Program-made: the position numbers and the translations under genes
Shown: positions 11,677 through 52,590 of the stretch, piece by piece
How positions within the stretch are numbered: position 1 is the stretch's first letter
Layout of the letters: the number at the start of each line of letters is the position of its first letter
Source of the DNA: Gemmatimonadales bacterium
GTDB lineage: Bacteria; Gemmatimonadota; Gemmatimonadetes; Gemmatimonadales; GWC2-71-9
Direction: 5' to 3'
NCBI GenBank assembly: GCA_037189525.1
Contig: JBBCJC010000002.1
Location: forward strand, 224,001-288,000
Length of the DNA stretch: 64,000 nucleotides
Notes under the pieces: model-generated
What the model was told of the DNA's origin: nothing
The model's input: only the letters and a program-made list of their open reading frames with translations
Databases searched by the model: none

Positions 11677-11687
11677 GTTCGATACAA

Positions 11688-11728
11688 TACCGGGAAAATA
11701 CCGCACGGCAAGCGGAATTTTCCCGGTA
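11688..11728. terminator. Long hairpin between convergent genes
   Basis: TACCGGGAAAAT-ACCGC...GCGGA-ATTTTCCCGGTA inverted repeat between the stops at 11676 and 11791. Confidence 0.6.
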
Positions 11729-11790
11729 CTCTGTTGTGCCAACCGACTGCCACCGCTGGATTTCCCGCCACCCTTACCGACGCGGACGGC

Positions 11791-16925: not shown

Positions 16926-18779
16926 CTAGCCTTCCGTTCGACCACCCGATGCGTCGGCTCGGTGCGTGGTATCGAAAACGAGCCGGCTCGCACCCTCACC
17001 GTCACTCACCCGTTTGCAGCGGCCGAGCCAGAGGAGCGACCGGCCGCCAAGCCATCGGGTGTGCTGGAACGCCCGCTCCACCAACACGCCGTCCCGCGGC
17101 ACTTCCCCGTCTTCGATCCGAAGCGGCGGCTCGCGGGTCACGTCGCCCGCCGGATCACTGCGTAGCAACTGGCCACGCGGATGGATCAATTCGGGATCGT
17201 CCTGGCCTTCGACGAAGCGGAGGAGCGCGCGCCGCTCCAGTTGCACCGCTCCCGAGCCCGCCGTGCCGCCGGCCGGTACCGCCACGAACGGGATCCAGTG
17301 GCGCGGCACCGGTGACGCCAGTCGATAGCTGAGCAATGCCTCGGCCGGCGCATCCGGCATGACCTGGCGGAGCGGGTCCTGATTCGGCTCCCGATAGCGA
17401 TCGAGCCTATCACCCGAGACACCCTGGACCACGCGCTCCACTCCCCAGACGACGTTGGCCATCTCGTCACGAAAGAGCGCCACCGCTTCGACCGGTGCGC
17501 CCATCTCGACCCGGGGTAAAGCCGGTGGCAGGAACAGCAGATCGCGCAGATAGGCCGGCGCCCCGGGTTCGGTGGCCAGTTCGAACATGGACCAGCGCGA
17601 CCCGTCCGGATTGCGGGACGGCCCGACCGTGATGATCTCGCCGAAGGTGTCGCGTACCGTACAGGAGCGGACCCGCGTGACCGTACCGACCGGCAGATCG
17701 ACGGGGACGAGAAACCAGTCATCGCCGTAGGCCAGGCCAAACTCCACCAGCAGGAGCCGCGTGAGATCGGTGCGGCTGGCCTCGAGCTGCGCCAGGTTGA
17801 CGCGGGTATCCTCGAACTCCCAGAACCGGCTGGCCGGCATGCCCGGGTAGCGCACGGCCGACGGCAGCATGGCCGGCTGGGGAGGCCGCGTCGATTCCGG
17901 CGGTGTCGCCGCGCGCCCCAGATCGGGCCCGGCCGCGGCGCGGAAACTGTACCAGTCGAGGCGACCATCGGTGTATTCGTCCGCCACGAGGGTGACCGGC
18001 CCCGCCTCCATATGCGCACCGAGCGCCAGGCCGTACTCCAGCCGCGCAGGGTTCCAGGCGCCGGTATCCTCGGCGGGATCGGTCAATCCACCGTCGTACC
18101 ACGCCAGCCACCGCATCGCGGCCCGGATCACGGCCGCCCGCCGCGCCGCCGGGATGGCCGGGGCAGCGGGCAAGGTCCCGATGGTGCCGTCCGCCCGAAC
18201 CCGCGATCGGAACGACCGGGCCAACGCCGCCCCGTCGAGCACACCGGCGCCGGTCAGTTCGGCCAGCGCCGCACCCTCGGGGTCGGCCGCCGCATCGGCA
18301 GGCCGCTCGATCCGCATCAGGAAGGGTTCGTGCTCCAAATAGCGCGCCGCCATCGCTCCAGCTTGCTCGGCATCGAGGCAGGACAGAAAATGGAGTCCTG
18401 CCTCGACCCGCAGACGCGGGTGGCTCCGCCGCACCGGCTCCTGTTCGATCATGACCTCGAGCGGCAGGTCGAGCGTCGCGTAGTCGACGGCCGCGGCCGC
18501 GGCATCGCGGGCGGGCGGCACACCCGCGTGATAGCGCTCGATCGGCGCCGCCTCGACATCCACCCGGACGTCGATCGGACTCCCGCCGTCTTCACCGGCC
18601 AACTCGAGCATCTGCCACTGTCGCCCGATCAACCAAAGCGGGTCCGCCAGCTGCGCCTGAAGACCGGGACCGAGATCGGGCGTGGCCGGCACTACCTCGA
18701 GCCGCGACCAGGTGGTGATCGAAGGCCGTCCTTGCAGCAGCTCCGCAGCGAGGGTCGCGCCCCGGACGACGAAACTCAT
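16926..18779 (-). CDS. Conserved-looking hypothetical protein, 617 aa (gene 5 of the large operon)
   Basis: Long ORF with an ATGA overlap on the upstream stop (18776-18779). Trp/Pro-rich motifs LADPLWLIGRQWQ, YPGMPASRFWEFED, FRDEMANVVWGVE. No recognisable domain. Confidence 0.85.
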   Translation of the reverse strand: MSFVVRGATLAAELLQGRPSITTWSRLEVVPATPDLGPGLQAQLADPLWLIGRQWQMLELAGEDGGSPIDVRVDVEAAPIERYHAGVPPARDAAAAAVDYATLDLPLEVMIEQEPVRRSHPRLRVEAGLHFLSCLDAEQAGAMAARYLEHEPFLMRIERPADAAADPEGAALAELTGAGVLDGAALARSFRSRVRADGTIGTLPAAPAIPAARRAAVIRAAMRWLAWYDGGLTDPAEDTGAWNPARLEYGLALGAHMEAGPVTLVADEYTDGRLDWYSFRAAAGPDLGRAATPPESTRPPQPAMLPSAVRYPGMPASRFWEFEDTRVNLAQLEASRTDLTRLLLVEFGLAYGDDWFLVPVDLPVGTVTRVRSCTVRDTFGEIITVGPSRNPDGSRWSMFELATEPGAPAYLRDLLFLPPALPRVEMGAPVEAVALFRDEMANVVWGVERVVQGVSGDRLDRYREPNQDPLRQVMPDAPAEALLSYRLASPVPRHWIPFVAVPAGGTAGSGAVQLERRALLRFVEGQDDPELIHPRGQLLRSDPAGDVTREPPLRIEDGEVPRDGVLVERAFQHTRWLGGRSLLWLGRCKRVSDGEGASRLVFDTTHRADASGGRTEG

Positions 18780-21700
18780 GTGATCCCCTTCCCCATGACC
18801 GCAGTGGCGGGGAGCGCCTGCGTCAGTCCGGCAACGAGGTCCCGGAAATCGAACGAGGGCACGTCACGCTGGAAGTTGTGGGACAGGTACGTCATCGGGA
18901 GGAACTGACCGAGTCCCTGGAGATCGGCAGGACCGACCATGCGCAGCTGGGCGAGAGTCCCCGCTTCGCGCACCACCTCGATCAGCTCGTCGGTCGACCA
19001 AGCCGGCGCCGCCCCATTGCCTGGTACCGCGAGGAGGACCGCCTGGGAGGCGCGGCTCCCCGGCGCGTCGTAGTGGAACGCCAGACCGGTGGTCTCGGTT
19101 GCCCCAGGAATCGTTTCGACCCACTCATCAGCCACGATACCCGCCAGGTCCGCATCGAGATCGGCGCCGGCGGGCGCATACGCCACAATAGCCAGCCGCG
19201 CCTCACGCGGTTTCGAACCTCCGTCCGGCAGCCCCATCCAGGGCGTACCGTCCCGATGCGGGAGCTGCCAGGCCCGGAACCGCGCTGCCGGCACCACGCC
19301 GCGAACCAGCTCCTGCCCGGTGAGCAGCCGCTGCACCGGCTCGACGCCGGGTCGAACCATGCCCATCCGCTGAATCCATTCCCGAATGACGAGCCCATCG
19401 CCCACCAGCGCGGCGCGATCGTCGTCGCTGGCCGAGAGCTCGCTCGAACCGGTTCGGAAGGCGGGCAATACGGGGAAGGCTTCGCCCAGCACAGTCCGGA
19501 TCCGGGCGACATGATCCGGTTCGCCCTCGGTATCCTCCAGCTGATCCAGCGCCGCGACCGCGGGTCCCAGCACCGCGAGGGCAGCGACAGCAATCGGACG
19601 TAGCTCCGCCGCTGCACTGGGAAGAGGCGGCGGATCGAATCCGGCAGCCTTGGCCTTGGTGATGGCGCGCCGGAGCGCGGCGGCCGTGGGATTACGCGCG
19701 GCAACCACGTCCTCGAGCGCCTCGAACGCGGCGCGCGCCGCGGCCGCGATCCGATCGGCGCGGGTTCGCAGTTCGGCCACCCGAATGCCCTCCTCGGCCG
19801 GTTGCTCTGGCAACGCGAGGTCCGTCGCCGTTGCCGTCCGGCGGCCTTGGAGTAATGCGGCCGCCCGTTGCAGCAACAGTTCGGTCGAACGGAATCCCAA
19901 GGTGCCGGCTGCTGCCCCCGTCGGCGGCCCGGCCAGCACCTCCAGCGTGGCGCCCTCACCCGCCTCGGCGAGATGTCCGGCCCAATGCTCCCGCAACGCC
20001 GTCTCGAGCCCGCTCTGCCCGCCGGCACCCGGACTGCTCGCAGTAACCAGAAGCGAGATCGGCGACCGCTCGAGATCGGTTACAACCGCCGAGAGTTTGG
20101 TAAGCTCCGCACCGGCCCGAACGATGCGACCGGCAAAGCGGATCTTTGCCGGCGCGCCCAGCAGCCCCGCAACCCACGCATTGACGCGTGGCTCCGCCTG
20201 CGCCCGGGCATCCCGGAGCGCGCGCCAGCCGGCACCTTCGTCGGTCGCGGAGAGGAGGAGCAGCAGGCGGTACTGGCAATCCGATCCGCTCCGAGTGGTC
20301 CGCGCCACAGCCAGATCGACCGCGCGCTCCTGCCGATCGAGTATCGCCAGAGCCGCCCGCGCTCCCGCTGGGCGGCCCAACACCATCTGATGCACCGATT
20401 CCGCCACGACCAGGTCACTCACGGCATCGAAGCCGTCGTCGATGGCTGTCAGCTCCGCAGTGAGCCCGTTCCGGTCGGCCGGGGTGCTCGCGCCGAGCTT
20501 GGTCAGGACGGCCGCGGGATTGCGCCGCCACTGCTCGAGCAGGGCGACGCCATCCACCACGTCGCGCGCTGCACTCTGTTCGACCGGTCCGGTCGGCGGC
20601 GGCTCGCCGGGACTGCGAAACGGCGCCAGCTGCCGGAGCGGATAGATGAAACGCGCCAGGCGGGCATCGCGATCGCGCAACCCGCGTTCCAGCCGGTAAC
20701 CGAGCAACGCCGCAAGCGATTGCCCGCGCGCAACCCCTTCGAGCAGCGTCAGACCGCGCCGAACCCGGGTCGAGGTCAGATCGATGTTGAGGAGTTCCCG
20801 CTTCCCGTCCTCGTCATGCCGGTGCGCCAGATGGCCGCTCCGCAGGATGGCGAGCGTTTTGGCCTGCTCCAGCGACGGCGCATGGAGGTACCCCAGACTT
20901 TCCGGCTCTCGGTCGGGCCGGACATCGAAGACCCATCCGTACCCGCCGAGGTGAACCCCATCAGCCCGCTCCTTCCGCAACTCCTTGAGCCGCAGCGTGG
21001 CAAGCGACGTCACCCAGGCATCGAGACGGGTGGAAAATCCGTCCAGCACACCCCGGAACGCCCACTCCACCTCGGCTGCGGGGCGCGTCGCGAGCGCTTC
21101 CAGTGCCGATACGAACCCTGCCAGCTGGGCAACGTCCGGGTCCGCGCGCCGGCCCCGCTCGTTCAGACGGTGCGCCACATGTTCGGCGACAGTGCGCTGC
21201 CCGGTCGTTGCGGGGATGACGAGATTGGCCAGTTGATGTGGCGTCGAGACCGTGACGGCATCCCCCTGCCCGGCCGGCGCGGCGGTGAGAAACATCATCT
21301 CACCGGCACGGAGGGCGGCCCGGGTCGGCGCGGCCGTGCCTCGACGCGCCTGGTCCGCAGCAACCACGCGCGCCGCCGCCCGATCGATTTCCAGCACGGC
21401 GGCGTGAGCAACCAGCGCTTCCAGCAGGGTCGGCGCGTTCTGCCGATTCGATAGCTGCGCTCTGCCATCGGGCGCCCGAACCAGCGCCGCGATCTCGGCC
21501 AGATAGGCGAGCGGCGCGTCGTCAGGATGATCGGCCGGACGGGTCCACGGCACCGCGAGTGGGAACGACCGGGGATCGGTGGTAAAGTGCTGCAACCGCA
21601 CCGGCGCCGAAAAGCCGCCCAACTGGCGTCCCACCATGCCGGCCAGCACCTGCTGCGCCGTCGCGTGAGCTTCGAGCCCGGTCACGTTGGTCTGCATCTC

Positions 21701-23308
21701 GGGCCCGTAGACGTGCCGGAACCGCGCCCGGCTCGCCACCGGCGCCTGCTGGAGAATCCGCGCCAGCTCCGTATCGGGGTCGCGGTCGGGCCCGAGCCGA
21801 GGCACGGCGGGAAGCGCGGCATTCCAGGCAGCGCGGAGGCGCTGCAGGAGCTGATGCAGACCGCTTTCAAAAGGATCGCCGGTTTGCGAGACAAATTGAC
21901 CTCGCGCCATAATGGGCAGCACCCCGTACGGTTGCGGCCCCGTCCGGAACGCCGGAATCGGCCCGCCGGGTCGCACATGCTGGAGCACGTGGCCGCGGGC
22001 CTGCGCGACCGTAGCGTCATCGAGCAGCGGGTCCATCAGCTGATCGAGATAGTAACCCGCGGTGGCCTCCCAGACCGCCGTGAGCACGAGGCCGGCGGTG
22101 GCCTCTTCGCTCGATGACGCGCGTGTGGCGTGCTCGAGCCCGGCCTTACCTGCCGGCAATCCCAGAGCGGTTTCGAGCACCCGCGCTGCCGAGCTGGCGC
22201 CCAGCTTGGGCAAAGGCGCCGCCGGATCGAACGCAGCCGTCAGGTCGGCATCTTCCGGGGACCCGGCCCGCGCCGCTTCGGTCGAGTTGGTTGGCGTCCC
22301 GGCCGCCGGAAAACCGAACCCATCGGCATGTACGTGTCCGCGGAAGAGATCGGCCAGGTCGGTTGCAGCCTGCTCCGGTGTTTGCGTCCAGTCCACCCCG
22401 ACCACCAGCAGCTGATCGAAACCGAGTTGCAGGGGTCGGCTGTCGAGCATATCAGCCGCTTCAATCGTGACGGCGAGCCCCTGCGCAACGGCAGCGGCGT
22501 AATCCACCATCCAGCGAGCCGCAGGATCGAGCGGCAGACCCTCGTCTGGAGTGACGGCCTCCTCGGTGTCGTCCGAGTCAGCCACCGGATCGACAGCCAG
22601 ACCGACAGCGACCGAATCGGGCACATGCTCGCCCCATTTCCGGGCCGCCACCTTGACGCCGCGTAGACCGACGATCAGCCATCGATCCGGCAGCGCACGA
22701 GCATGGGCACCCTCGCGCCAGGCCGCGTCGCGCAGCGTCGGATCAGGAAACGCCGGCTCCGCAGACGTACCAGCCGCCTCCTGGTTCGTCGGCGCCGTCG
22801 CATCGGCGACCCAGCGCGCTCGCCGCGGACCGAGCATGCGGGCCAGTTCCTGCCACGCCGCCGTCGTTCGGTCCCTTTCGCCGGCCCAACGCTGAGTCCA
22901 GTACCATCGCCCCGCGTCCACTTCGGCCTGGGTCAGCGCGGGCTCATGCTGATCGACATGAATCTGATCAGGAAAGATCCGGACCCGGAGCGCCTTTCGG
23001 TCGGCGGTGAATCGGGTCTCCAGTCGCACCGGCAGGAGCGCGATCGGATAGCCGGCTGCGAGCCCCGCCACCAGTTCGTCGGCGCCGCGGTCGCCCTCCA
23101 TTTCGTTACTGAGTTCGCGAATCCTGTCGCGGATCGCATCGAGCCGGCTCCGTCGGGTGACCACGTCGCGCGCGAGCGTCGCCACTCGGGACGGGGCCGC
23201 CGAGCGCTCGGCCGCGCTCAGAAGCCGCGCCGCGCGGGCCAGCGCCGCTTCCGCGTCGGCCAGGTCGGCGCGGGCCCGCTCGAGTTTGGTGAGTCGCGAG
23301 TCGGGCAT
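18776..23308 (-). CDS. Large hypothetical protein, ~1510 aa (gene 4)
   Basis: Start reassigned to ATG 23308 (MPDSRL), 2 nt after the upstream stop. N-terminal coiled-coil-like segment, then LLPVRLETRF, RLDAWVTSLA, and C-terminal DEWVETIP...AFHYDAP. Confidence 0.85.
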   Translation of the reverse strand: MPDSRLTKLERARADLADAEAALARAARLLSAAERSAAPSRVATLARDVVTRRSRLDAIRDRIRELSNEMEGDRGADELVAGLAAGYPIALLPVRLETRFTADRKALRVRIFPDQIHVDQHEPALTQAEVDAGRWYWTQRWAGERDRTTAAWQELARMLGPRRARWVADATAPTNQEAAGTSAEPAFPDPTLRDAAWREGAHARALPDRWLIVGLRGVKVAARKWGEHVPDSVAVGLAVDPVADSDDTEEAVTPDEGLPLDPAARWMVDYAAAVAQGLAVTIEAADMLDSRPLQLGFDQLLVVGVDWTQTPEQAATDLADLFRGHVHADGFGFPAAGTPTNSTEAARAGSPEDADLTAAFDPAAPLPKLGASSAARVLETALGLPAGKAGLEHATRASSSEEATAGLVLTAVWEATAGYYLDQLMDPLLDDATVAQARGHVLQHVRPGGPIPAFRTGPQPYGVLPIMARGQFVSQTGDPFESGLHQLLQRLRAAWNAALPAVPRLGPDRDPDTELARILQQAPVASRARFRHVYGPEMQTNVTGLEAHATAQQVLAGMVGRQLGGFSAPVRLQHFTTDPRSFPLAVPWTRPADHPDDAPLAYLAEIAALVRAPDGRAQLSNRQNAPTLLEALVAHAAVLEIDRAAARVVAADQARRGTAAPTRAALRAGEMMFLTAAPAGQGDAVTVSTPHQLANLVIPATTGQRTVAEHVAHRLNERGRRADPDVAQLAGFVSALEALATRPAAEVEWAFRGVLDGFSTRLDAWVTSLATLRLKELRKERADGVHLGGYGWVFDVRPDREPESLGYLHAPSLEQAKTLAILRSGHLAHRHDEDGKRELLNIDLTSTRVRRGLTLLEGVARGQSLAALLGYRLERGLRDRDARLARFIYPLRQLAPFRSPGEPPPTGPVEQSAARDVVDGVALLEQWRRNPAAVLTKLGASTPADRNGLTAELTAIDDGFDAVSDLVVAESVHQMVLGRPAGARAALAILDRQERAVDLAVARTTRSGSDCQYRLLLLLSATDEGAGWRALRDARAQAEPRVNAWVAGLLGAPAKIRFAGRIVRAGAELTKLSAVVTDLERSPISLLVTASSPGAGGQSGLETALREHWAGHLAEAGEGATLEVLAGPPTGAAAGTLGFRSTELLLQRAAALLQGRRTATATDLALPEQPAEEGIRVAELRTRADRIAAAARAAFEALEDVVAARNPTAAALRRAITKAKAAGFDPPPLPSAAAELRPIAVAALAVLGPAVAALDQLEDTEGEPDHVARIRTVLGEAFPVLPAFRTGSSELSASDDDRAALVGDGLVIREWIQRMGMVRPGVEPVQRLLTGQELVRGVVPAARFRAWQLPHRDGTPWMGLPDGGSKPREARLAIVAYAPAGADLDADLAGIVADEWVETIPGATETTGLAFHYDAPGSRASQAVLLAVPGNGAAPAWSTDELIEVVREAGTLAQLRMVGPADLQGLGQFLPMTYLSHNFQRDVPSFDFRDLVAGLTQALPATAVMGKGIT

Positions 23309-23310
23309 CG

Positions 23311-26292
23311 TCAGCCGATCAGGTGTGAGGCGTGGATGGCCACCCGGGCCGGCTGCTGCAGCATCAGCGCCGCCTGGTGCGCAGCGTTCTGCCCGAACTG
23401 CGCCGTGCCCGCCGTATGACCCTGCAACGGGTTCTGGTCGAGCACCAGATAGCGACCGGGTCCGGTGCCGGCATCGAGCCACGTCGCGCCGCGCCATTCC
23501 GCGGGCAGCGCGGCAATCGCTCGGGGTCCCGGTTCATCGAATCCGAACCGCGGTTCGGTAGGCTGCTCCTGGATCACGAAGAAGAACCCATCACCCGCCA
23601 CCGCCTCTTCGTCCGTCAGGTCGAAGCCCGCAAACGCGAGATCGGGTTCCAGCCGGCCGGTGAAGACGGGAGCCCGCAGGTCGTCGCCCGTCGGGTTCCG
23701 CTTGAGCCGGCCCGCCGCGGCGCGCCAGGCGTAGAGCACGGCATTCGGATACCGCGACAGGAGCCGGCCGCGCACCAGCAGCACCAGCTGCCCGCCAACC
23801 GACACGCCGCTATGACTGCCTAACACAGAGTTGTCTCGCCAGCGATGGATCGGTTCGATATCGGGCCGGCCGTCGATGCGGTCCCAGAAGTACCGGAGCG
23901 CGGTAGCTCGGCCATCACTCGGGAAGCGGCGCCAGAGCAGCTCGCCATTGAGCTCGGTGTTTGCGCCGGCAAGGAATGCCTCGATGAACCGCGGATTGGT
24001 TTCGAGCAGCGTGATGGCGTTCGGCGGAATCCCGTCCGCCCCCGGCAGGAACCGGTTCCGATCGGTCTCGGCCAACAGCCGATAGAGCGGCGTCTCGATC
24101 ACCGGCGCGGCCATCACCCGGTCGAGCGTCTCCGGCACCCGGATGGCCTCCATCCCGGCAAGATCGAGTTGCCCGGCAACCGAGACCATGGCCCGGATCC
24201 GCTTCGGCACCGTCACCGCGGGATCCGTCGCCGATCGGACATCCGCAGCCAGCGCTGAGAGCTCGAGCGGCACCAGCGGCGCCCGGGGCGTCGCGACATC
24301 GACATGGAGCACCTCGAACGTCTGCGCCCGCGCCGTCTCGAACCGCCGCACTGCGGCCGCAGCCTTCACCAGCCCCTCGACCGGAGCAGTGGTCCGACCG
24401 AGTCGTCCGCCACGCGCTACCCGGAACGGGCCACCGGAGGTCGTACCGGTCGTCCGCGTCAGGATCACGGTCCCATCGGTGCGGAGCGCGGCATCGAGCG
24501 CAGCCCGGGTAACCACACCCTCGGCGCCAAGATCGCTGCGTGCGGCCAGGACGGGATTCTGTGCCCGCGTACCGGTCAGCGCTCGCGCCGACGTGCGCAG
24601 CAAGGCAAGCTCGTCCCGGTCGACCTCCAACGCGAGCCCAAACGCGGCGAGCGACACCTTCGAGGTTCCCATCGGCTCCGGCACGGCGGCATTCAGCGCG
24701 ACGCTGCCCAGGATACCATCGGGCACGAACCCCGCCGGATCGACACCGCTCCAGCCGGCGGCAAACATGGCAACCATCTTGGTCCGCGCCGGCGCTCGGC
24801 TGCCGGTGCGCCGAGCCAGGCGTTTCAGAATCGGACTCTGGCCGCTGGTGAGGCGCCGCATGGCCGCCCCGACCGCCGCATCGGGCACGCTGCTGCCCGC
24901 GATACGCCGTCGCGCAACCGCCCCCGCCGATCGCACCCGATCGAGCAGTGGCGCCGCAACCGTCGCGAGTCGATCCGGATCCAGCGGCGCCAAATGCCGT
25001 GTGTGCAGCTTGCGCAACCCTTCGAATGCCAGTCGTCCGCGGCTCAGGAGTTCGTTGGCCTTCAGGATATCGCCGACCTGATCCCAGCAGACCCGCATGA
25101 AGTCTTCCTGATACGTCCGCACCACCTGCGCACCGAGGCCCGCTGCCACCCGGGCCCGCGGATCGAGATTGAGTGCGCGGAACCAGGGCGGCGCGTCATC
25201 CGGCACCAGATAGCGCCGAGCATGCTCCGCCGCGTAGAGCGGGGGCGCCAGCGCTCGGGTACGCGCCTCGCCGTCATCGGCGGCGCGCAGCCGTTCCGGC
25301 GCCTCGACGATGTCCCGGAGCCAGGTCTGGAACGCTTCCGCAATCTCCTCCAGCGCCGGCGGCCGGCCGCTCGGCGCCCGCAGTACGCCGTCGAGCGTGG
25401 TCATCGCGTCGGCCGGCGTCAGGGTGAGCCCCGGCACGTCCGGCGCCGCAGCGCCCAAATACATCGGCTCCGCACCAACCGTGGCGGGGTCAGATTGCAT
25501 CGGCCGAAGTTCCCGCGCCAGCGACTCGAAGTCTCCGCCGGGACCGGTCGCAAACTCCCAGTGGTAGTACACCGGCAGCACCAGATCGCTGGACTGGTTC
25601 GCGTCCCACGCCGGGGCCAACGTGGCGTTGGCATCGGGAGGATTACCCACGCCGCGCAGCCGTCCCACCTCGAACGCCGGAACCAGACACGCGGCATACC
25701 GCCGCCCGGCCACGAGTCGGCGCGGGCAGACCAGTCGCGACACGTTCCGCTCCGGCCGCTCGGCCAATTCGCCGGCGAGTGCCGCGGGCGCCGTCGCCTC
25801 GGTCAGCAGCTGCGCATGGGCCCAGGCCCAGCTTTCGGCCAGATCCGGCAGTTCCGTGGCGACCGCCTCGCGAGGCACGATCACGATCGGGAGCGGCGCC
25901 CCCCGCGGCAACGTCGGCGCAGCGACCACCTCCAAATCGACCACGACCAGCACACACCAAGGCTTCAGTTGCTCCGAGCCGTCCGGTCGCGCCGGCGTGA
26001 ACAACCAGGGAAAGTCCGGCGGATCGAACTCGATCGCCGCGCAGTAGTTGGGTTCGGCGTCCGTACTCCCCCGCGCCGGGTCGGTGCGCACGATGAGCCG
26101 GGGATCGACGCCCAGCACGTCACCGGGGCCGATGAGTTCCAGGTTGATCTGATGCTCGCCGAGATTGGAGACGGTGAGCGCTACCCCCACGCGAGCCCGG
26201 GCCGGCAGCGGCGTGGTACCGTCGTCGACAGCCTCGACCTCCGCGACCAGGCCGCGTCGGGTCCAGGGCAGAAATCGATAGGCATCGGCCAT
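23311..26292 (-). CDS. Large hypothetical protein, 993 aa (gene 3)
   Basis: Long ORF 2 nt from both neighbours. Motifs YRFLPWTRRGL, DFPWLFTP, PVYYHWEFATG, ELLWRRFPSD, FVIQEQPTEPRFG. Confidence 0.85.
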   Translation of the reverse strand: MADAYRFLPWTRRGLVAEVEAVDDGTTPLPARARVGVALTVSNLGEHQINLELIGPGDVLGVDPRLIVRTDPARGSTDAEPNYCAAIEFDPPDFPWLFTPARPDGSEQLKPWCVLVVVDLEVVAAPTLPRGAPLPIVIVPREAVATELPDLAESWAWAHAQLLTEATAPAALAGELAERPERNVSRLVCPRRLVAGRRYAACLVPAFEVGRLRGVGNPPDANATLAPAWDANQSSDLVLPVYYHWEFATGPGGDFESLARELRPMQSDPATVGAEPMYLGAAAPDVPGLTLTPADAMTTLDGVLRAPSGRPPALEEIAEAFQTWLRDIVEAPERLRAADDGEARTRALAPPLYAAEHARRYLVPDDAPPWFRALNLDPRARVAAGLGAQVVRTYQEDFMRVCWDQVGDILKANELLSRGRLAFEGLRKLHTRHLAPLDPDRLATVAAPLLDRVRSAGAVARRRIAGSSVPDAAVGAAMRRLTSGQSPILKRLARRTGSRAPARTKMVAMFAAGWSGVDPAGFVPDGILGSVALNAAVPEPMGTSKVSLAAFGLALEVDRDELALLRTSARALTGTRAQNPVLAARSDLGAEGVVTRAALDAALRTDGTVILTRTTGTTSGGPFRVARGGRLGRTTAPVEGLVKAAAAVRRFETARAQTFEVLHVDVATPRAPLVPLELSALAADVRSATDPAVTVPKRIRAMVSVAGQLDLAGMEAIRVPETLDRVMAAPVIETPLYRLLAETDRNRFLPGADGIPPNAITLLETNPRFIEAFLAGANTELNGELLWRRFPSDGRATALRYFWDRIDGRPDIEPIHRWRDNSVLGSHSGVSVGGQLVLLVRGRLLSRYPNAVLYAWRAAAGRLKRNPTGDDLRAPVFTGRLEPDLAFAGFDLTDEEAVAGDGFFFVIQEQPTEPRFGFDEPGPRAIAALPAEWRGATWLDAGTGPGRYLVLDQNPLQGHTAGTAQFGQNAAHQAALMLQQPARVAIHASHLIG

Positions 26293-26294
26293 GG

Positions 26295-29200
26295 TCAGGC
26301 CTCCTCCTGCTGCTCGACGACACGGAGCGCCGCCCGATCGGCCCGCGCACCGAGCGCAGCCTGCGCCAGGCTCACCGACCGGATCCCTGCATCGGACAGC
26401 ACCACGGCCTCGGCCGGCGCATTGAGAGTCTCCGCCGACACCACCGCGAGCGCCGGTGCCGTCACCGCGAGGCGGGGGGCAACCGCCGGACCGCCGAGCT
26501 CGCTTCGGATCGGCGAACGCGCCACGGCGCCCGCTTTGGCCTGCCAGTTCACCGTCGCCGTCGACAAGGCGCCAAGCTCTGCCAGCTCCGCACGCAGCCA
26601 GGCCCTCGGCCGAGTCGGCTCCTGGACGCCGGAGAGATCGAGATAGAACGTTTCGTAGTCGAGGTCGCCCGACACGGCGGGACCGGCCGAGAATCCCGGG
26701 CTGCCCACCGCGACACCCGCCGGGAGCGGTTCGAACGACGGCAGAGACAATTGTTCCTCGGGCGAAACATCGAAGAAGTGGCTCCGCGCAAACGACTCGG
26801 TCACCACCGGCGGTTCCTGCAGCACTCGGCTCCCGATTCGCAACCCGGCCAGATCGAACCGATTGGCGCCCTGGACGGCAGTTTCGCCGAATCGCTGAAG
26901 CGTCAGGTTGAACGGCACCACGCGCTGGGTGAACGACAGCGCGGCAAGCGGATGCGCCGGCACGGCATCGGGCGTCGCCCCGCTCGCGAGCGTCGCCAGC
27001 TCATCGGCGCCCGCGGGAAGCGCGGCCCGCCAGTTTCCGGGATCCCGTAACGACTCGGCCAGCAGCCCAGCCACGTCCGTACTCCCGTCGAGCGCCGGGG
27101 GCGCCGCCTCGCCCCAGTCGATGTCGAACGATTTACTAATGTCCCACCAGAGGATCTCGAACGTCGCCGTGCCCCAGAGCCGCCAGTAGCCGGGGCCCTG
27201 CAGCGTAGCCGCGACGTCGACCCCGGCGAGTGAACGCCCTTTATAGGTGACCCGCGCCACGATCACGACCTTGAGCACGAACATGTCGCGGGTGAACAGA
27301 CCATCGACCTCGAGCTTGCCCTCGAGTCCCACCGGACCAAGCTTGGCCTTGGCCGACCCCTTGAAACCGATCTGGAACGAGTTGGAGGTGACGGCCAGGT
27401 AACCCGAGATCTCGATCGTGAATCCGCCCCGCTTGATGGGCGAGATGCCGAGCCGGGCCAGCGACGACGGCATCCCGGGCGGGAGATCCTTGAAGTCGGG
27501 ATGGAAGCCGCCGAACGCGAGCAGGAACGCGCTCGTTTCGCCCCAGTCGATGCGCAGCAGGAAGGAGCCCTGGAGACTGAGCCCGCCGATCTTCGAGTCG
27601 CGCAACTGGGCCAGGAGCCCGAACTGCTTCGCCACCAGATCGAGGTGGCCGAGCACGTCGACCTTGAGCTGCAGGATCGGCTTGGCGGGCGGCTCCGGCT
27701 TCACCACACTCACCGTGCCGAAGAGGACGAGCCGCGCCAGTTTGATCTCCTGCTCACCTGGCAGAGCCCCGTCGATCTGCGCAATGATGCCGAGCCGGGC
27801 CGTCACCAGCTTCTTCGAGAGATAGCGAATCTCCACGAACGGCCCGACCGTGAGGCTTTCCGCGCTCACCGGGAACGCCGTTCGGAGCCGCGGCAGGATC
27901 CGGGGCGCGTCGGCCACCGGATCTTTCGGGAAGAGAATGTCGTCCAGTACCCCGCTCTTGAGACCGGCCTGGAGCGCGGGAACGTCCGCGCCGTGATTCA
28001 GACCGATCATCCCGCCCACGCCGTTCAGCGTGAGCCCCCAGAAGAGGGGATATCCCTTATCCCACTGTACGAAGAGGAGAAACAGCACCGACCATGTAGT
28101 GCGCTCCTCACCAACCGGCGCCTTGGTCGAAATGATGACCAGCGCCTTGAGCTGCGGCTTGACGAACTTGATGTCGAGCACGCCCGCGTACTCGCCCGCT
28201 GCGGGATCCCACCAGAGGAAGCCGCCGCCCTTGATCGGTCCCTTGGTAATCGAGAGCCCAAGTCCTTTGGGCGACAGGAACCCGGCATCGTAGCCGAGCC
28301 CACCGATCCGATGCGCGGGCGTCTCGTCGTCCTCGTCGCCGATCAGCGCGAGGTCGAGGCGGAAGCCGGCCCGGTCCACCACCGCGGTGAACGGACCAAG
28401 CGGGAAGGCGATCCCCGCCGCCAGCGTCAGGGCCAGGCTCCTGGGCCCCTTTCCCTTTTCGAGGCCGAGTTCGAGATAATGGAGACTGAACCGCCCCTTC
28501 GAGGTGGCGACCGGCAGCCGCACCACGAAGCGAGTTCCACCCTCCAGATGCACACCGGTCGACGAGTCCAGCACCAGCGCCGTCGAGAATGTGCTCCGCA
28601 CTTCGGCGCCCGACAGGTTCTTGAGCAGGCCGTCACTCTCGCCGAAAGCCAGCACCAGGGTCGCTTCTTCCGCACCGAGGCGGAGGCGCGCACCGTCGGA
28701 ACTGGCCTCACTGGCGACGCTGAGCCGGTTGATCTCGATCCGGCTCCCGGTCTTCGAACCGATCCGGAAAGCTTTGTCCCGTCCTTGGCTCCAACGAACG
28801 CGAAGCTGCGCCTGCGGATTGGTCCCGGCCCGAAAGCCGACTGGCGACACCAGCAGATTGAGGGCGTCGGCCAGCGCCGTCTGCACCACGAACCGATGCT
28901 CGCCGGTGCCGACGTCGAACCCGACGCTCCCGCTCAGCGAAACGACCGCGCCTCCGCCATGACTGCCGGGAATGGGCACGATCGTGAGGCCGACGGCCAG
29001 TTCCGGATTGTCCAGGTCGTGCAGCACGAGGGTCCCGGCTCGGCCGGTGGCCAGATCCGCGAGTGGCGTGGGCGAGTCGGGCTCGGGATCCCACCCGTAG
29101 TGAACCCGGAGCCCCAGACCGAGCTTCTTGAGCGGCTCCTCGAACCGCGGCGCAAGCTTCCACAGCCCGATGCCCGTCAGGGCTGCCCACCAGTCGAGAC

Positions 29201-29657
29201 GAGGGCTGTCGCTTTCCACATCCGTGAACGCGGTGAGCAGCCGGTTGAGCGCCAGCTGCTTTACGGCTTCGGGGTCTTCCGTCAGGACACCGAGCGCCCG
29301 CCCCGCCGCCGCAACGCGCGGGGCATGCAGCTCCAGCAGCTCCGCAGAGGAAGTTTCCGCGATGATGTGGAAGACATCCCAGCCGCTCAGGTTGCCGCGG
29401 GCCAAACCCCCGCACACGGCGACCAGCGTCTGCCCCACCATCAGCAGGTCGTCGAGCACCGCCTCGGTCTTTTCCCGGCTCCGCGCCAGCACCTGCCGCT
29501 GCTCGTCCGTCAGCTTCGCACCGGTCTTGAGGCCGAGCTCGGTTTGGACCCGAATCTGCTCGGGGGAGTCGCCCAGATACTGCTCCAGCCAGAGCCCCAT
29601 CCGATCGACCAGGGTCTTGATCCACTCGAGCAGACCGGTGTCCTTGTCCTCAGCCAT
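26295..29657 (-). CDS. DUF6603-like beta-strand-rich protein, 1120 aa (gene 2)
   Basis: GLGLSITKGPIKGGGFL...EYAGVLDI...TLNGVGGMIGLN...FGGFHP...GYLAVTSNSFQIG, recalled as the DUF6603 signature. Long run of amphipathic beta strands. Overlaps the upstream stop by 8 nt. Confidence 0.7.
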   Translation of the reverse strand: MAEDKDTGLLEWIKTLVDRMGLWLEQYLGDSPEQIRVQTELGLKTGAKLTDEQRQVLARSREKTEAVLDDLLMVGQTLVAVCGGLARGNLSGWDVFHIIAETSSAELLELHAPRVAAAGRALGVLTEDPEAVKQLALNRLLTAFTDVESDSPRLDWWAALTGIGLWKLAPRFEEPLKKLGLGLRVHYGWDPEPDSPTPLADLATGRAGTLVLHDLDNPELAVGLTIVPIPGSHGGGAVVSLSGSVGFDVGTGEHRFVVQTALADALNLLVSPVGFRAGTNPQAQLRVRWSQGRDKAFRIGSKTGSRIEINRLSVASEASSDGARLRLGAEEATLVLAFGESDGLLKNLSGAEVRSTFSTALVLDSSTGVHLEGGTRFVVRLPVATSKGRFSLHYLELGLEKGKGPRSLALTLAAGIAFPLGPFTAVVDRAGFRLDLALIGDEDDETPAHRIGGLGYDAGFLSPKGLGLSITKGPIKGGGFLWWDPAAGEYAGVLDIKFVKPQLKALVIISTKAPVGEERTTWSVLFLLFVQWDKGYPLFWGLTLNGVGGMIGLNHGADVPALQAGLKSGVLDDILFPKDPVADAPRILPRLRTAFPVSAESLTVGPFVEIRYLSKKLVTARLGIIAQIDGALPGEQEIKLARLVLFGTVSVVKPEPPAKPILQLKVDVLGHLDLVAKQFGLLAQLRDSKIGGLSLQGSFLLRIDWGETSAFLLAFGGFHPDFKDLPPGMPSSLARLGISPIKRGGFTIEISGYLAVTSNSFQIGFKGSAKAKLGPVGLEGKLEVDGLFTRDMFVLKVVIVARVTYKGRSLAGVDVAATLQGPGYWRLWGTATFEILWWDISKSFDIDWGEAAPPALDGSTDVAGLLAESLRDPGNWRAALPAGADELATLASGATPDAVPAHPLAALSFTQRVVPFNLTLQRFGETAVQGANRFDLAGLRIGSRVLQEPPVVTESFARSHFFDVSPEEQLSLPSFEPLPAGVAVGSPGFSAGPAVSGDLDYETFYLDLSGVQEPTRPRAWLRAELAELGALSTATVNWQAKAGAVARSPIRSELGGPAVAPRLAVTAPALAVVSAETLNAPAEAVVLSDAGIRSVSLAQAALGARADRAALRVVEQQEEA

Positions 29658-32310
29658 GGGTCAGCTCCGGATGCTCCGGTGCGCGTGCGAGCGGAAGGAC
29701 ATGTACGGTGACGTCGATCGGCAGCGCGGAAGCCCGATCCTCCGCGGACTTGAGCGTATGGGTCACCACAATCTCGTCCGTCGCTCCGGTGAACCCGACG
29801 AGGCCGATGTTCGACTCGAAGATGATCATCCGGGTGTGCTCGATGAACGTGAGCGCGGTGGTGGAGTGCCGAGCCGCTACCCGCGCATATTCTTCGAGCA
29901 GCGGATCGGGGTCGGTGTCGCCCGCGGTAATCGTCAGCTCGCCGCCCACCAGTTTTGCCGGCTGGATCGAGAGGTCCAGATCTTCACGCGGCCTGGGGTC
30001 CCGTGCCGGTGTGATCTGCCAGGCCCAATCCGGCTTTTTGTCTGCAGGAATCGAGGTGCCCGCCGGCCAGCCGTCGGCCGGCACGATCGACGGCCGCTGC
30101 TTCATGCGCACCAGGCGACCGATCCCCGGAGCCGCGCCGCCGGGTACCACGATCGGCGACAGCCCTTCCCAGCCCAGCCTGACTCGGCTGGGTATGGGCA
30201 GCACGCCCTGCAGCAGCCCGTGGGTTCGCACGATCGGCAGAAAACTCTTGGCCGCGGGGTTATGGAGCGCGCTCGCCGTGAGCTGCACGATCCGTGATGC
30301 CGCTTCGTCCTTGCCGCCCTTCCAGTAGTCGAGTGACAGACTGGTCCCGTAGTGCACGTCGCCCGACAGGATCACCACTCGCGGGTGCGTGGCCACCCGC
30401 GCGATGAACTCTTCGAACGCCAGTTCATTGGCCGCCCACGACTCGACGTCGTTGACGAACCGGCCTTCGATCTGCCCCGTCGGGTTGCACTCGGAGTAGT
30501 CGAGTCTGGCGGCCGAGAGCTTCACGTCGTGGACCGCATCGGCCAGTGGCTGCGCAATCTGCTCGATGATGCTGGGGCCCAGCACCGGTACCGGCGAGAC
30601 GAGGAGCAGCAGTTCGCGCTCCGGCGGCGCCGAGGTGCCCGCCGGCAGCTGGGTCTTGAGACTCTCGCCCAGCAGACTGGCCGGCGTCGGCAGCGCGTTG
30701 GGAAAGCCGCGCCGAGTCCTGGTGTCGAGCACGACGGTATGGTGCTTGATGCCTGGTAACTGATAGTGCCACTTGATCTGCTTGGTGGCGTCGGGTTCCG
30801 CGCCCAGACCCAGGCACTGATCCAGCGCCGCGGTGTCGGCAGCGGGGACGTGGTGATTCGGCGCGAGGACCTTGGCGGCCTCGGTCAGGAATGCGGCATT
30901 GTCGCCGCTGGCTGCGAAGGTATCGGGATCGTTGCCCCAGCCCTGGAAAATCCCATACGCCAGGAGCCCGTTCCGCAGAATAGCACGGCCGAACGCACTC
31001 CGGTTCACATTGGTGATCCAGTCGCGGCTGATGTTCCAGTCGTCGGTCACCTCGTGATCGTCGAAGATCATGTAGGTGGGCACGTTGGCGAGCGCCCGCG
31101 CCACCTTGGGCACCGTCGACCGGAAGTTCATCACCTCTTTCCACTGCCTGGCGAGTTTCGGCGCCTCGTCCCGGGTCCAGGCGACCACGCTCGGATGATC
31201 GCTGCACAGCTCGGGCTGGGTCAGCACGTCGGGTCGTGCCGTATCGGGGCCGAGAGCGCCGAGCATCTCCGTCACGCCGAGCTTACAGATCGGACCACTG
31301 CCGGGGCGCGCCGGTTTGGGACCGGGGCTCAGGCAAAGCTCCTCCGACCAGGGGCGGTCATCGGGTGACCAACCGCACTCACCGCACAGGACCACCGGCA
31401 GCGGCCGCCAAACACGCGGGCTCCATACGGCCAGATACATCGCCGCGTACTCCCGAAACGTCAGGAGATGATTCTCCGCGTCGCTGGTCGTGAACTTCGC
31501 ATCGGACTGCAGCACCTTCGCACGCCGCGCAACCGGGAAATTCGCGATGTGCGCATCGATATCCTGACCTGGCGATGTCGGGGTCCCACCGAGGGTCAGC
31601 CGCTCGTGCACGACCGCGGCGTCGACATCGGTGCCGTTTTGCAGATCCGTCCCCAGCCCGCTGAGCATTTGGAGCAGGGCGCCCGCCACGTCGTCCGCAT
31701 AGATCTGGTCGCCGGTGAGGAAAAGCTGCTGCGGACGCGAGAGCGGATCGCCTCGCGTCCGGCCGATCTCATCGTCGAGCCAGGCCAGGGCGTCGGGGCC
31801 GTACGCATGCGGCTTCCGGCAGCTCCCGTGCACCAGCTTGAGGCCGGCGATCGTTTCCGCCGAGAGCACGAACGACGGCAGCTGGCCATCGTTGTCGTAG
31901 CCCAGGCGTTTGGTGAGCGGGGCCATCGGGTGGACCCCCGGTAGCCGACTGTCAGGTTTTTCGTCAGTGAGCAGACCGGCGGTCCGCAGATCGCTCGGGA
32001 CCCCGTCGCCCTCGAACCCGAGCCCATAGGAGTAGATAACCCCGGCCCGAAGTGGCGCCGCTTCCGCCTTGGCCGTTACCACCGCCACATGCAGCGCGCG
32101 CCCGAAGGCGACGGTCTGGAGCGACCCGGTGGCGACCGGTTCCTCTCCGGACTCGACTGAATTGGCGGTGTCACCCGCCTGTTGTTGATTGAGCCAGACC
32201 TTGAGGGTGACGGTGGCCGGAACCGAGAGGGCAATCCACACCGACACCCGCCGGGGATCGACCCGTCGAAGGATGGGACCCGCCAGGACGAACGGAAGTT
32301 GCGCCGGCAT
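29650..32310 (-). CDS. PhoD-like (alkaline phosphatase D family) metallophosphoesterase without export signal (gene 1)
   Basis: HGSCRKPH, LTGDQIYADD, IFDDHEVTDDWN, LDTRTRR, LSGDVHY metal-ligand motifs. The N-terminus MPAQLPFVLAGPILRRVD lacks a Tat/Sec peptide. Confidence 0.85.
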   Translation of the reverse strand: MPAQLPFVLAGPILRRVDPRRVSVWIALSVPATVTLKVWLNQQQAGDTANSVESGEEPVATGSLQTVAFGRALHVAVVTAKAEAAPLRAGVIYSYGLGFEGDGVPSDLRTAGLLTDEKPDSRLPGVHPMAPLTKRLGYDNDGQLPSFVLSAETIAGLKLVHGSCRKPHAYGPDALAWLDDEIGRTRGDPLSRPQQLFLTGDQIYADDVAGALLQMLSGLGTDLQNGTDVDAAVVHERLTLGGTPTSPGQDIDAHIANFPVARRAKVLQSDAKFTTSDAENHLLTFREYAAMYLAVWSPRVWRPLPVVLCGECGWSPDDRPWSEELCLSPGPKPARPGSGPICKLGVTEMLGALGPDTARPDVLTQPELCSDHPSVVAWTRDEAPKLARQWKEVMNFRSTVPKVARALANVPTYMIFDDHEVTDDWNISRDWITNVNRSAFGRAILRNGLLAYGIFQGWGNDPDTFAASGDNAAFLTEAAKVLAPNHHVPAADTAALDQCLGLGAEPDATKQIKWHYQLPGIKHHTVVLDTRTRRGFPNALPTPASLLGESLKTQLPAGTSAPPERELLLLVSPVPVLGPSIIEQIAQPLADAVHDVKLSAARLDYSECNPTGQIEGRFVNDVESWAANELAFEEFIARVATHPRVVILSGDVHYGTSLSLDYWKGGKDEAASRIVQLTASALHNPAAKSFLPIVRTHGLLQGVLPIPSRVRLGWEGLSPIVVPGGAAPGIGRLVRMKQRPSIVPADGWPAGTSIPADKKPDWAWQITPARDPRPREDLDLSIQPAKLVGGELTITAGDTDPDPLLEEYARVAARHSTTALTFIEHTRMIIFESNIGLVGFTGATDEIVVTHTLKSAEDRASALPIDVTVHVLPLARAPEHPELTHG

Positions 32311-35054: not shown

Positions 35055-35975
35055 ATGAGCAATCAAGCACAGGGTACGTCGCTGGCGCCTCATCAGCAGG
35101 TCGACCGCCTGGTACGGGATTTGGCGGAAACACCCTATCCAATCCTGATCCTTGGCCCGACGGGTTCCGGGAAGAGTACGCTTGCCAGGTACATTCACTC
35201 GATATCGCCTCGCGCCGTCCACCCATTTGTGGAGTGTGCGGTCACATCGATTCCGGATGAACTCAGGCAGGCGGAACTACTCGGCTCTATGAAAGGGGCC
35301 TATACAGGTGCCTATCACGATCGCGTTGGCTTTGTCGAACAAGCGCACACCGGCACATTGTTTCTCGACGAGCTTGGGCACGCGTCGCTTCGCTTTCAAC
35401 AAACACTCCTTGGCATTCTCGAGACTGGCCTCGTTCGACGAATCGGCAGCAGCTATCAGCGCACAGTTGATGTCCGAATCATCTGCGCGACATCTGTGAA
35501 TTTGGCAGCTCGTTCGCAGGAAGGCCTGTTCCTCGAAGAGCTACTCTATCGGGTGGACTGCCTCACGGTTTCTTTACCATCACTTCGTGAGCGTCGTCAG
35601 GAGATTGTACCACTTGCAACTCGATACTTGCAGGAGGCGTTTGTAGAGCTGGGTCGTGACTTTGTTCCTGTGTTGTCTGATGATGCGGCGGTGATTCTTC
35701 GCAATGCACCGTGGCCCGGAAACATGAGGCAGCTCCGGTCAGTTTGCCAGTACATTGCCAGCAGACTGCGGAGCCCACGTCCTGTTCAACCGACTGATAT
35801 TCCCGAACAGATCCGCGGAATGACAAAAGGGCATCAAACGAAACACGAAGAAGCTCAAGCGTTGTTAGACGCCACACGGGGCAACAAATCCGAGACTGCG
35901 CGCCTGATGGGTATCTCGCGACCGTCGCTCTACAAGCTCCTGGCCGAAGCATCTACGACGGTCCGTAAAGATTGA
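35055..35975 (+). CDS. Sigma54-dependent transcriptional activator (bEBP) lacking an N-terminal sensor domain
   Basis: Walker A GPTGSGKS from about residue 34, GAYTGA loop, LFLDE, WPGNMRQL, C-terminal Fis HTH GNKSETARLMGISRPSLY. Confidence 0.9.
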   Translation: MSNQAQGTSLAPHQQVDRLVRDLAETPYPILILGPTGSGKSTLARYIHSISPRAVHPFVECAVTSIPDELRQAELLGSMKGAYTGAYHDRVGFVEQAHTGTLFLDELGHASLRFQQTLLGILETGLVRRIGSSYQRTVDVRIICATSVNLAARSQEGLFLEELLYRVDCLTVSLPSLRERRQEIVPLATRYLQEAFVELGRDFVPVLSDDAAVILRNAPWPGNMRQLRSVCQYIASRLRSPRPVQPTDIPEQIRGMTKGHQTKHEEAQALLDATRGNKSETARLMGISRPSLYKLLAEASTTVRKD

Positions 35976-35996
35976 CAGCAACTATCCAAACACAAG

Positions 35997-36010
35997 TGTA
36001 AAACTCTACA
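35997..36010. promoter_or_regulatory. Candidate upstream activator sequence (palindrome)
   Basis: TGTA-AAACTC-TACA inverted repeat about 65-80 nt upstream of the -24 element. Confidence 0.35.
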
Positions 36011-36074
36011 ACTCCGGCCCTGCGCCCCCGGCGCTAACGCGTTGTCATACAACAGCGTTGCCGTTTGGTCGTTG

Positions 36075-36091
36075 CTGGCCCACCGCCTGCA
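36075..36091 (+). promoter_or_regulatory. Sigma54 (-24/-12) promoter of the T2SS operon
   Basis: CTGGCCCACCGCCTGCA = TGGC...TGCA with exact GG-N10-GC spacing, ~35 nt upstream of the gspE ATG. Confidence 0.7.
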
Positions 36092-36124
36092 CTACAACAG
36101 GTGAGGCCCGCCTCGAGGCGAACC

Positions 36125-39506: not shown

Positions 39507-39510
39507 TCTG

Positions 39511-39846: not shown

Positions 39847-39852
39847 CTTGTC

Positions 39853-44590: not shown

Positions 44591-44614
44591 ACGCCACGTC
44601 TGGAACGGATCATC

Positions 44615-52569: not shown

Positions 52570-52590
52570 GGCACACGTGGCCCGTGTGCC
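52570..52590. terminator. Hairpin downstream of the S8 peptidase
   Basis: GGCACACG-TGGCC-CGTGTGCC, 18 nt beyond the stop at 52608. Confidence 0.35.

Follow-up and report, generated by a model that had tools for sequence, protein, structure and literature searches.

We analysed a 64,000-nucleotide stretch of a Gemmatimonadales bacterium genome (contig JBBCJC010000002.1, positions 224,001 to 288,000; hereafter the window), in which five co-directional genes, numbered 1 to 5 in order of translation, form a tightly packed operon, referred to below as the cassette (Table 1). Inspection of the sequence and of the open reading frame (ORF) coordinates confirmed the arrangement put forward in an earlier interpretation made without database searches (the sequence-only reading), with an 8-nucleotide overlap between genes 1 and 2, 2-nucleotide gaps between genes 2 and 3 and between genes 3 and 4, and an ATGA overlap between genes 4 and 5. 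The 1510-residue length of gene 4 takes the internal ATG at position 23308 as its start; the mechanical ORF opens at 23497, encodes 1573 residues and overlaps gene 3 by 187 nucleotides. Because the G+C content at third codon positions of the five ORFs (0.77-0.84) resembles that of the flanking genes, and because all five have many homologues, we treat them as genes. A scan of the operon strand found no sigma-70-like promoter and no notable terminator.

Pfam searches agree with the initial description of gene 1 as PhoD-like, gene 2 as DUF6603-like and genes 3-5 as belonging to no recognised family; none of the five proteins has a meaningful match in NCBIfam, PHROGs or PADLOC, and comparing the sequences of genes 1, 2, 3 and 5 with solved structures returned nothing meaningful. 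As had also been proposed, a crude heuristic scan of the N-termini (not SignalP) detected no Sec-like hydrophobic region, Tat motif or lipobox in any of the five proteins, the best 12-residue N-terminal hydropathy being 0.67-1.65 as compared with 2.6 in a neighbouring control gene. The core proteins contain no conserved transmembrane-like segment.

Table 1. Genes, predicted domains and neighbouring features in the window.
Feature	Coordinates	Strand	Size or residues	Description	Basis
Gene 1	32310-29650	-	886 aa	PhoD-family metallophosphoesterase, leaderless	Pfam PhoD, weak DUF7800
Gene 2	29657-26295	-	1120 aa	DUF6603 core subunit	PF20248
Gene 2 helical head	29124-29657	-	residues 1-178	helical, divergent	model, pLDDT ~40-80
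Gene 2 amphipathic meander beta-sheet	27114-29117	-	residues 181-848	41 strands, mean ~10 residues	model
Gene 3	26292-23311	-	993 aa	core protein	Pfam: no family
Gene 4	23308-18776	-	1510 aa	core protein	Pfam: no family
Gene 4 helical domain	20423-20722	-	residues 863-962	homologous to gene 5 residues 121-230	profile comparison
Gene 5	18779-16926	-	617 aa	core protein	no Pfam, no fold match
Gene 5 helical insert	18090-18419	-	residues 121-230	weak SAM-like shape	model
Unassigned ORF	9667-11742	-	691 aa	adjoins AraC regulator	no Pfam match
Type II secretion block	35055-45670	+		GspE, G, F, pseudopilin, K, secretin; G+C 57-61%
RHS-repeat/S8 locus	47572-54320	-		1537-aa RHS-repeat protein downstream of S8 peptidase
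Exonuclease/SNF2 trio	55757-61293	-	424, 710 and 706 aa	RNase T-type exonuclease, SNF2 helicase, third protein	third protein: no Pfam match

Examination of homologous neighbourhoods upholds the proposal that genes 2-5 constitute an invariant core while gene 1 is exchanged for other enzymes. Across the 20 loci recovered by a gene-5 scan of species genomes, the core genes occur in the same order wherever upstream sequence is present. A gene-3 scan of metagenomes, from which 67 loci were retained out of 601 confirmed stretches, places gene 2 before gene 3 in all 60 loci with sufficient room. Where gene 3 is complete, gene 4 comes next in 45 of 45 loci, and gene 4 is in turn succeeded by gene 5 in 25 of 25. 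These counts overstate the independence of the observations because several loci are near-duplicates. To guard against anchoring bias, we also surveyed the neighbourhoods of DUF6603 itself, taking 40 regions from 62 match rows; the domain was found in 43 of 251 genomes from the family of an actinomycete genome and in none of 14 controls. Among the 40, the 25 regions of class I all have genes 3 and 4 after gene 2; gene 5 is seen in 18, the remaining seven regions ending too soon.

The other 15 regions (class II; loci L118-L127, L129, L137 and L146-L148) pair DUF6603 with different partners, two of which correspond in profile alignments to the two halves of gene 3 (hhalign probabilities of 96.4% and 36.9%). 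This gene-3-like partner may be split, whole or fused, and in four loci it is fused to DUF6603. A third partner of about 1200 residues has at most trace similarity to gene 5 (4%), and class II loci carry metallo-beta-lactamase (MBL)-fold or Gln_deamidase_2 enzymes, often a LamG protein, and in some cases DUF6603 proteins longer than 3200 residues. DUF6603 thus occurs in two classes of cassette, and since a gene-3-like partner is common to both, DUF6603 together with this protein constitutes the deepest core.

The first slot is occupied by at least seven enzyme classes that can be named by Pfam. In the 40 metagenome loci where 1.2 kb or more of sequence precedes gene 2, the slot holds a PhoD-like enzyme in 20, phospholipase D (PLD), an S8 peptidase, a haem peroxidase and a trypsin/Nal1-like protease in two each, an M14 peptidase in one and a coupled protein of no named family in three. 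The corresponding counts are PhoD 5, PLD 2, S8 3 (one identified by eye and frameshifted), trypsin-like 1, M64 2, unknown 1 and none 3 in 17 genome loci, and PhoD 10, M64 4 (one by eye), trypsin-like 2, S8 1, PLD 1, unknown 5, none 1 and one long fusion in the 25 class I actinomycete loci. Near-identical cores are found with different enzymes in front of them (L093 as compared with L096 and L097, and L090 with L095).

Several slot occupants have features of their own. A helical tail of about 140 residues is common to trypsin-like and S8 cargoes, two unrelated protease folds (L035, L090, L095-L097, L131, L138 and L139); 11 cargo ORFs carry it, its profile having been built from ten, one of them poorly aligned, and it is a candidate targeting or docking domain. 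Its resemblance by eye to CFI-box-CTERM found no support (hhalign 0.04%, from a two-sequence template), while two other S8 cargoes do match CFI-box-CTERM, one of them above the cut-off. Two further occupants, L114:8450-11206 and L150:5103-6572, contain hydrophobic segments (19-residue hydropathy of 2.77 and 1.91, respectively) and look toxin-like; the latter lacks a Pfam match, and a nuclease-like motif can be made out in it by eye.

Cassette copies are spread over Actinomycetota, Pseudomonadota, Acidobacteriota, Myxococcales, Gemmatirosa and haloarchaea, and gene 3 is present on 13 plasmid records from Streptomyces, Nocardia, Rhizobium, Paraburkholderia, Gemmatirosa and four haloarchaea; several of the copies on the eight records inspected lie beside integrases. 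Copies broken by frameshifts or stops, through either sequencing error or decay, occur at L017/L041, L141, L144 and L152. In the host genome the cassette is single-copy, and its G+C content of 68.9% exceeds the genomic 65.5%: none of 295 tiled 15-kb segments of the genome reaches 68.8%, the operon being divided between tiles. One of 40 related genomes yielded gene 5, at 42% identity, and DUF6603 was present in six of 301 genomes of the host phylum (the host's own included) and in none of a 124-genome family sample. Horizontal acquisition of the operon is likely.

The enzyme of the window's own cassette matches Pfam PhoD (PF09423) at 31.3 bits against a cut-off of 27, over short stretches only, and DUF7800 weakly. 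Its conserved residues (C164, D201, Y204, D206, D417/D418/H419, D423/D424, D651 and H653) fall in the motifs SC164, GD201xxY204xD206, D417D418H419xxxD423D424 and D651xH653, which are invariant or at least 90% conserved in 16 aligned homologues and which we take to supply the individual PhoD metal ligands. In 13 of the 16, only 2-11 residues separate a methionine from the first conserved motif. On these features gene 1 is a leaderless variant of the PhoD family and a predicted phosphodiesterase. It shares the Pfam match and the Cys/Asp/Tyr/His metal-ligand motifs with Bacillus subtilis PhoD and Streptomyces chromofuscus PLD; the available part of the source on these exemplars describes extracytoplasmic, Fe3+/Ca2+-dependent enzymes with Cys and Tyr ligands and two Ca2+ ions, whose substrates are thought to be teichoic acid or phospholipid (PMC4223295). 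Gene 1 differs from them in having no export signal, in its 886-residue length with large inserts, and in its coupling or fusion to DUF6603. Peptidoglycan-binding tails are present on three of ten Micromonosporaceae PhoD cargoes. A transglycosylase-like domain suspected by eye in two long PhoD tails was rejected, since neither Pfam nor the PDB bore it out.

Gene 2 is a member of DUF6603, matching PF20248 at 283 bits (cut-off 27) over residues 386-967 and profile positions 4-501 of 502; RefSeq plasmid records list a 'DUF6603 domain-containing protein' beside hypothetical genes. An AlphaFold2 model built from 55 sequences, with a predicted local distance difference test (pLDDT) value of 75 and a predicted template modelling (pTM) score of 0.60, begins with a helical head modelled at low confidence, continues as 41 consecutive strands among which short helices are inserted, and ends in a mixed tail. 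The two faces of the sheet differ across the alignment: hydrophobic residues make up 78% of one and 32% of the other, and charged residues 5% and 28%, respectively (34 strands). For nine gene-5 strands, the corresponding hydrophobic shares are 61% and 40%. In gene 2 and gene 5 alike, the more hydrophobic face was picked separately for each strand, a choice that exaggerates the contrast. Tyr and Trp each make up 2% of the hydrophobic face. Long, hydrolase-fused DUF6603 forms contain about four internal repeats of some 220 residues (hhalign up to 89.9%), an arrangement more easily reconciled with an extensible belt or groove than with a fixed barrel; no internal repeat was detected in the sheet of gene 2 itself.

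Fold searches with the gene 2 model returned generic large curved sheets, with 5-14% identity and a flat spread of Z scores. FimD (Z 13.8, root-mean-square deviation (rmsd) 5.9, 252 residues aligned) and LptD (Z 10.9, rmsd 5.6, 226 aligned) were matched alongside apoB100 (Z 13.3, rmsd 10.9, 287 aligned) and porins (Z ~12, rmsd 11-12), residues ~464-840 superposing best on the large barrels. RHS and TcB-TcC chains appear low in the Foldseek list, at probabilities of 0.10 or less; VPS13, ATG2 and TamB chains are absent among the matches listed, although the fold may still be of that kind. Lipid-free belts collapse in AlphaFold2 models, as described in the available part of PMC11839476, and the curvature of the gene 2 model is for this reason weak evidence and may be an artefact.

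The helical heads of gene 2 homologues fall into three related subtypes, type A being homologous to type B (86%) and to type C (72%). When residues 130-886 of the PhoD-like enzyme were modelled together with residues 1-215 of gene 2, the interface score ipSAE was 0.48, as compared with 0.00 for the best control, with a contact agreement of at least 29% and a partner pLDDT of at least 43. The mark used for such predictions was reached by 116 of 157 solved pairs and two of 215 mismatched ones; at scores of 0.60 or below, only 18 solved pairs and both mismatches are found. The model weakly suggests that the PhoD-like enzyme binds the gene 2 head, which makes the head a candidate docking site for the enzyme.

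Pfam places genes 3-5 in no known family. The ESM Atlas yielded only hypothetical or DUF6603 clusters, and for gene 4 only hypothetical ones. The coiled coil ascribed to the gene 4 N-terminus is apparent by eye only, in a poorly conserved stretch. A single helical domain is homologous between genes 4 and 5 (hhalign probability 53.9%, E 1.3e-4), the gene-5 profile also matching fused gene-4 halves there; no other homology was detected among genes 2, 3, 4 and 5. Gene 5 has 3954 homologous representatives at E<=0.001, and its model (113 sequences, pLDDT 85.6, pTM 0.82) matched no fold in the PDB or BFVD (best Z 4.9; none at E<=0.001 in BFVD), a search in which single domains may be missed because the whole 617-residue model was used. 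The model suggests that gene 5 probably adopts a new fold. Its conserved N-terminal 60 residues are modelled at low confidence and may fold on a partner. The insert of gene 5 is weakly SAM-like in shape, at a level within background (VIA: best Z 4.9, rmsd 3.2, 71 residues aligned), a lead only.

Natural fusions join the proteins of the cassette to one another. The 2138-residue protein P0168 fuses a PhoD-like enzyme to DUF6603 at its head side, and the other 12 long DUF6603 proteins carry an alpha/beta-hydrolase match in front in eight cases and an LCAT-like one in two; genes 4 and 5 are fused in five of seven long homologues, three of which form a divergent group with 49-53% mutual identity. 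With the fusions of DUF6603 to the gene-3 relative in class II this makes three kinds of fusion, which, along with the weak complex prediction above, lend indirect support to the earlier suggestion of a large multi-subunit machine.

Relatives of genes 3, 4 and 5 in addition gain surface-type domains of the adhesin or lectin kind. FG-GAP/VCBS inserts are carried by gene 3 relatives. Pfam matches were obtained for 15 of 29 longer gene-5 relatives: IPT/TIG in seven, collagen in three (one also with TIG), and PASTA, PA14, WD40, P-domain, DUF2934 and a weak Ig match in one each. The annotations of two haloarchaeal plasmids assign a BGTF surface domain to gene 4 and a lamin-tail domain to gene 5.

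Outside the cassette, comparison of the downstream flanks of gene 5 (227 ORFs from 42 loci) and of the upstream flanks of PhoD (104 ORFs from 29 loci) brought out no recurring family beyond the neighbours of close kin. At one locus only (L104:19239-20006), a peptidoglycan-binding protein with a weak pesticin/lysozyme-like match (E 0.009) abuts gene 5, and may possibly be a lysis or effector gene. In the window, the operon is bordered on one side by a homoserine dehydrogenase gene, transcribed divergently, and on the other by a convergent gene for a Ser/Thr kinase-TPR protein. A lower-GC block encoding a type II secretion set, flanked by two sigma-54 activators, begins ~2.7 kb from the operon; substrates of such systems normally require leaders. 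The same lower-GC island contains the RHS-repeat/S8 locus, possibly a polymorphic toxin locus. Further along, the co-directional exonuclease/SNF2 trio could be a defence or repair module. The unassigned 691-residue ORF is overlapped by an ORF of similar length on the opposite strand, and either of the two may be the true gene.

Comparison with described systems bore out the view that no characterised one matches the cassette, whether in Pfam, NCBIfam, PHROGs, PADLOC or the literature searched. That literature search, whose scope excluded subscription papers, and supplementary tables of comparative-genomics studies that could list the system, found no paper naming DUF6603 or PF20248, nor any on DUF7800 or CFI-box-CTERM; within it, the system is undescribed. 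Tc (ABC) toxins, RHS cocoons and extracellular contractile injection systems are built from large leaderless subunits encoded in operons with interchangeable cargo, a layout to which the cassette bears a likeness. However, the TcA, TcB (SpvB) and TcC (RHS core) families are absent from all five proteins in Pfam and NCBIfam at E<=1, and neither of the two proteins folded, gene 2 and gene 5, gave a convincing match to a Tc or RHS-cocoon fold; an 886-residue metalloenzyme is, moreover, probably too large for a cocoon. Sheath, tube, baseplate and HK97 shell proteins gave no significant PHROGs or Pfam match to the five proteins, with folds compared for the gene 5 model only.

The Tc, capsid, encapsulin and tail options raised at the outset found no support: no such fold matched the gene 5 model, and viral collections yielded one fragment and one doubtful record. 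An origin in phage capsids or tails was rejected: viral contigs held no gene-3 relative and a single gene-5 fragment at a contig end. The doubtful record (L158, MT835531.1), labelled 'Bacteriophage sp.' and UNVERIFIED, is unannotated, has 76% GC and holds genes 2-5; it is probably bacterial DNA.

The likeness to Tc particles, and to the umbrella toxin particles of Streptomyces with their multiple subunits, variable lectin tips and variable active part, is one of overall logic only. UmbC, as set out in the available part of its description, has a TAT signal together with ALF repeats and a toxin at its C-terminus, and is often accompanied by an immunity gene (bioRxiv 10.1101/2023.12.09.570830), whereas the five proteins here have no Tat motif, genes 3-5 have no Pfam match, no immunity gene is found, and the enzyme is a separate upstream gene or is fused N-terminally. 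The beta-belt of ApoB100 resembles gene 2 in that an amphipathic meander sheet, interspersed with helices, runs on over a long distance without a break, its strands averaging 11 residues as compared with ~10 here (available part of PMC11839476), but gene 2 has only 41 strands and matches it at 6% identity and an rmsd of 10.9, so that the likeness is one of analogy, not homology. A long amphipathic sheet is also shared with the AsmA/RBG bridges, whose AsmA-like members are marked by an N-terminal transmembrane anchor and AsmA/Chorein-N domains (available part of PMC10345924); gene 2 has neither the anchor or domain nor an N-terminal hydrophobic helix. Among outer-membrane barrels of the usher/LptD type, gene 2 superposes in part on FimD, and it has no Sec signal peptide by the heuristic scan. 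By the features tested, the cassette is not a Tc toxin, an umbrella toxin, an AsmA protein, a signal-bearing outer-membrane barrel or a PADLOC system; at the level of folds, compared for genes 2 and 5, Tc and tail proteins are excluded incompletely.

With a probability of roughly 0.45, we favour the reading that the cassette encodes a cytoplasm-built, lipid-associated particle that carries a swappable envelope-attacking enzyme to its targets. A released particle ranks first because the enzymes and added domains are mostly of extracellular types, leaders are absent, and the subunits are coupled and fused. We infer that the four core proteins, synthesised in the cytoplasm in amounts tied to one another, would assemble into one large complex in which the DUF6603 sheet, hydrophobic on one side, may wrap or grip lipid as an apoB-like belt or groove. 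The leaderless slot enzyme, here a PhoD-type phosphodiesterase, would ride at the gene 2 helical head, with genes 3-5 forming a scaffold that displays variable lectin or adhesin domains. Lacking an export signal, the particle would exit by lysis or in membrane vesicles and bind a foreign cell surface or polymer, where the enzyme could attack envelope phosphodiesters in phospholipid or teichoic acid.

Several observations weigh against this reading. The window's own cassette carries none of the adhesin additions in a form recognisable by Pfam. Many slot cargoes, such as proteases and the peroxidase, are not lipid enzymes, and eight of the 40 metagenome loci have no coupled enzyme in the first slot. 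Distances between gene 1 homologues track those between core genes (Spearman 0.71-0.82 over 10-16 loci), and PhoD is therefore a long-term stable partner rather than a fast-swapped tip. A cargo-specific adaptor head seemed plausible when all 19 type-A heads of a first set proved to be PhoD-linked though scattered over the core tree, but it failed in an independent set, in which 12 of 12 PhoD-linked heads are of the promiscuous type B; only a one-way link survives, type A implying PhoD. Finally, the 42 downstream and 29 upstream flanks contain no conserved release, transporter, lysis or immunity gene, and an antibacterial toxin should require the last of these.

The alternative that fares best, though we judge it improbable, is an intracellular defence or programmed-death complex, in which the variable domains would detect an invader or damage to the envelope. 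Its core would polymerise through the SAM-like domain shared by genes 4 and 5, while the amphipathic sheet would keep the enzyme at the membrane of the producing cell, which the enzyme would kill. Five proteins without leaders and the patchy, mobile distribution of the cassette in phylum, family, actinomycete and plasmid samples count in its favour, and the trypsin-like, MBL and alpha/beta-hydrolase classes overlap with the defence effectors in the available part of PMC12642450. Yet PADLOC-DB 2.0 gives no family for the five proteins at E<=0.1, Pfam identifies neither an NTPase nor any other known sensor among the core proteins, the SAM-like match does not rise above background, and the cargoes and added domains are mostly extracellular types; by term counts, PhoD, M64, peroxidase and tyrosinase do not occur in the main text of PMC7159879.

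A self-contained secretion system, its DUF6603 sheet closed into a membrane barrel in the producer's envelope, its genes 3-5 serving as scaffold and its enzyme exported, is a considerably poorer prospect. Secreted-type enzymes without leaders would suit it, as does the superposition of part of gene 2 on FimD and LptD. Outer-membrane barrels, however, bear aromatic girdles, which the Tyr- and Trp-poor hydrophobic face does not resemble; the barrel matches are generic, the sheet is extensible by repeats, and its modelled curvature may, on the account in PMC11839476, reflect AlphaFold2 rather than the protein. The cassette is also found in monoderms and haloarchaea, and its core contains no ATPase and no conserved transmembrane helix.

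Least likely of the three is intracellular lipid handling, by a bridge-like lipid transfer protein (an RBG/AsmA-like analogue) or a lipid-droplet coat with a lipid-modifying enzyme, which draws on the amphipathic, extensible sheet, the lipase-, LCAT-like, PLD and PhoD-type partners and the apoB100 belt among the top fold matches, but is at odds with the proteases, peroxidase and peptidoglycan-binding tails in the same slot, with a patchy mobile distribution unlike that of a housekeeping function, and with the absence of an N-terminal transmembrane anchor and of any AsmA/Chorein-N Pfam domain.

The favoured particle has a bolder form, which we regard as unlikely: a prokaryotic lipoprotein-particle weapon, in which an apoB-like belt would surround a lipid core or membrane piece, three new-fold scaffold proteins would bear lectin or adhesin arms, and interchangeable hydrolases and oxidases would leave the cell without a signal peptide. 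If true, it would represent a class of enzyme delivery unrelated to Tc, contractile, RHS cocoon and umbrella systems and present in both bacteria and archaea. The cassette is compact and self-contained, and could be expressed whole and imaged directly. Its conserved core amounts to ~4,200 residues for which the libraries searched describe no function. Phosphoesterases, phospholipases, lipases, four protease classes and a peroxidase, none of them with a leader, can each be accommodated by this fixed scaffold; such a range of cargo implies an unrecognised route by which folded enzymes are placed at membranes or outside the cell.

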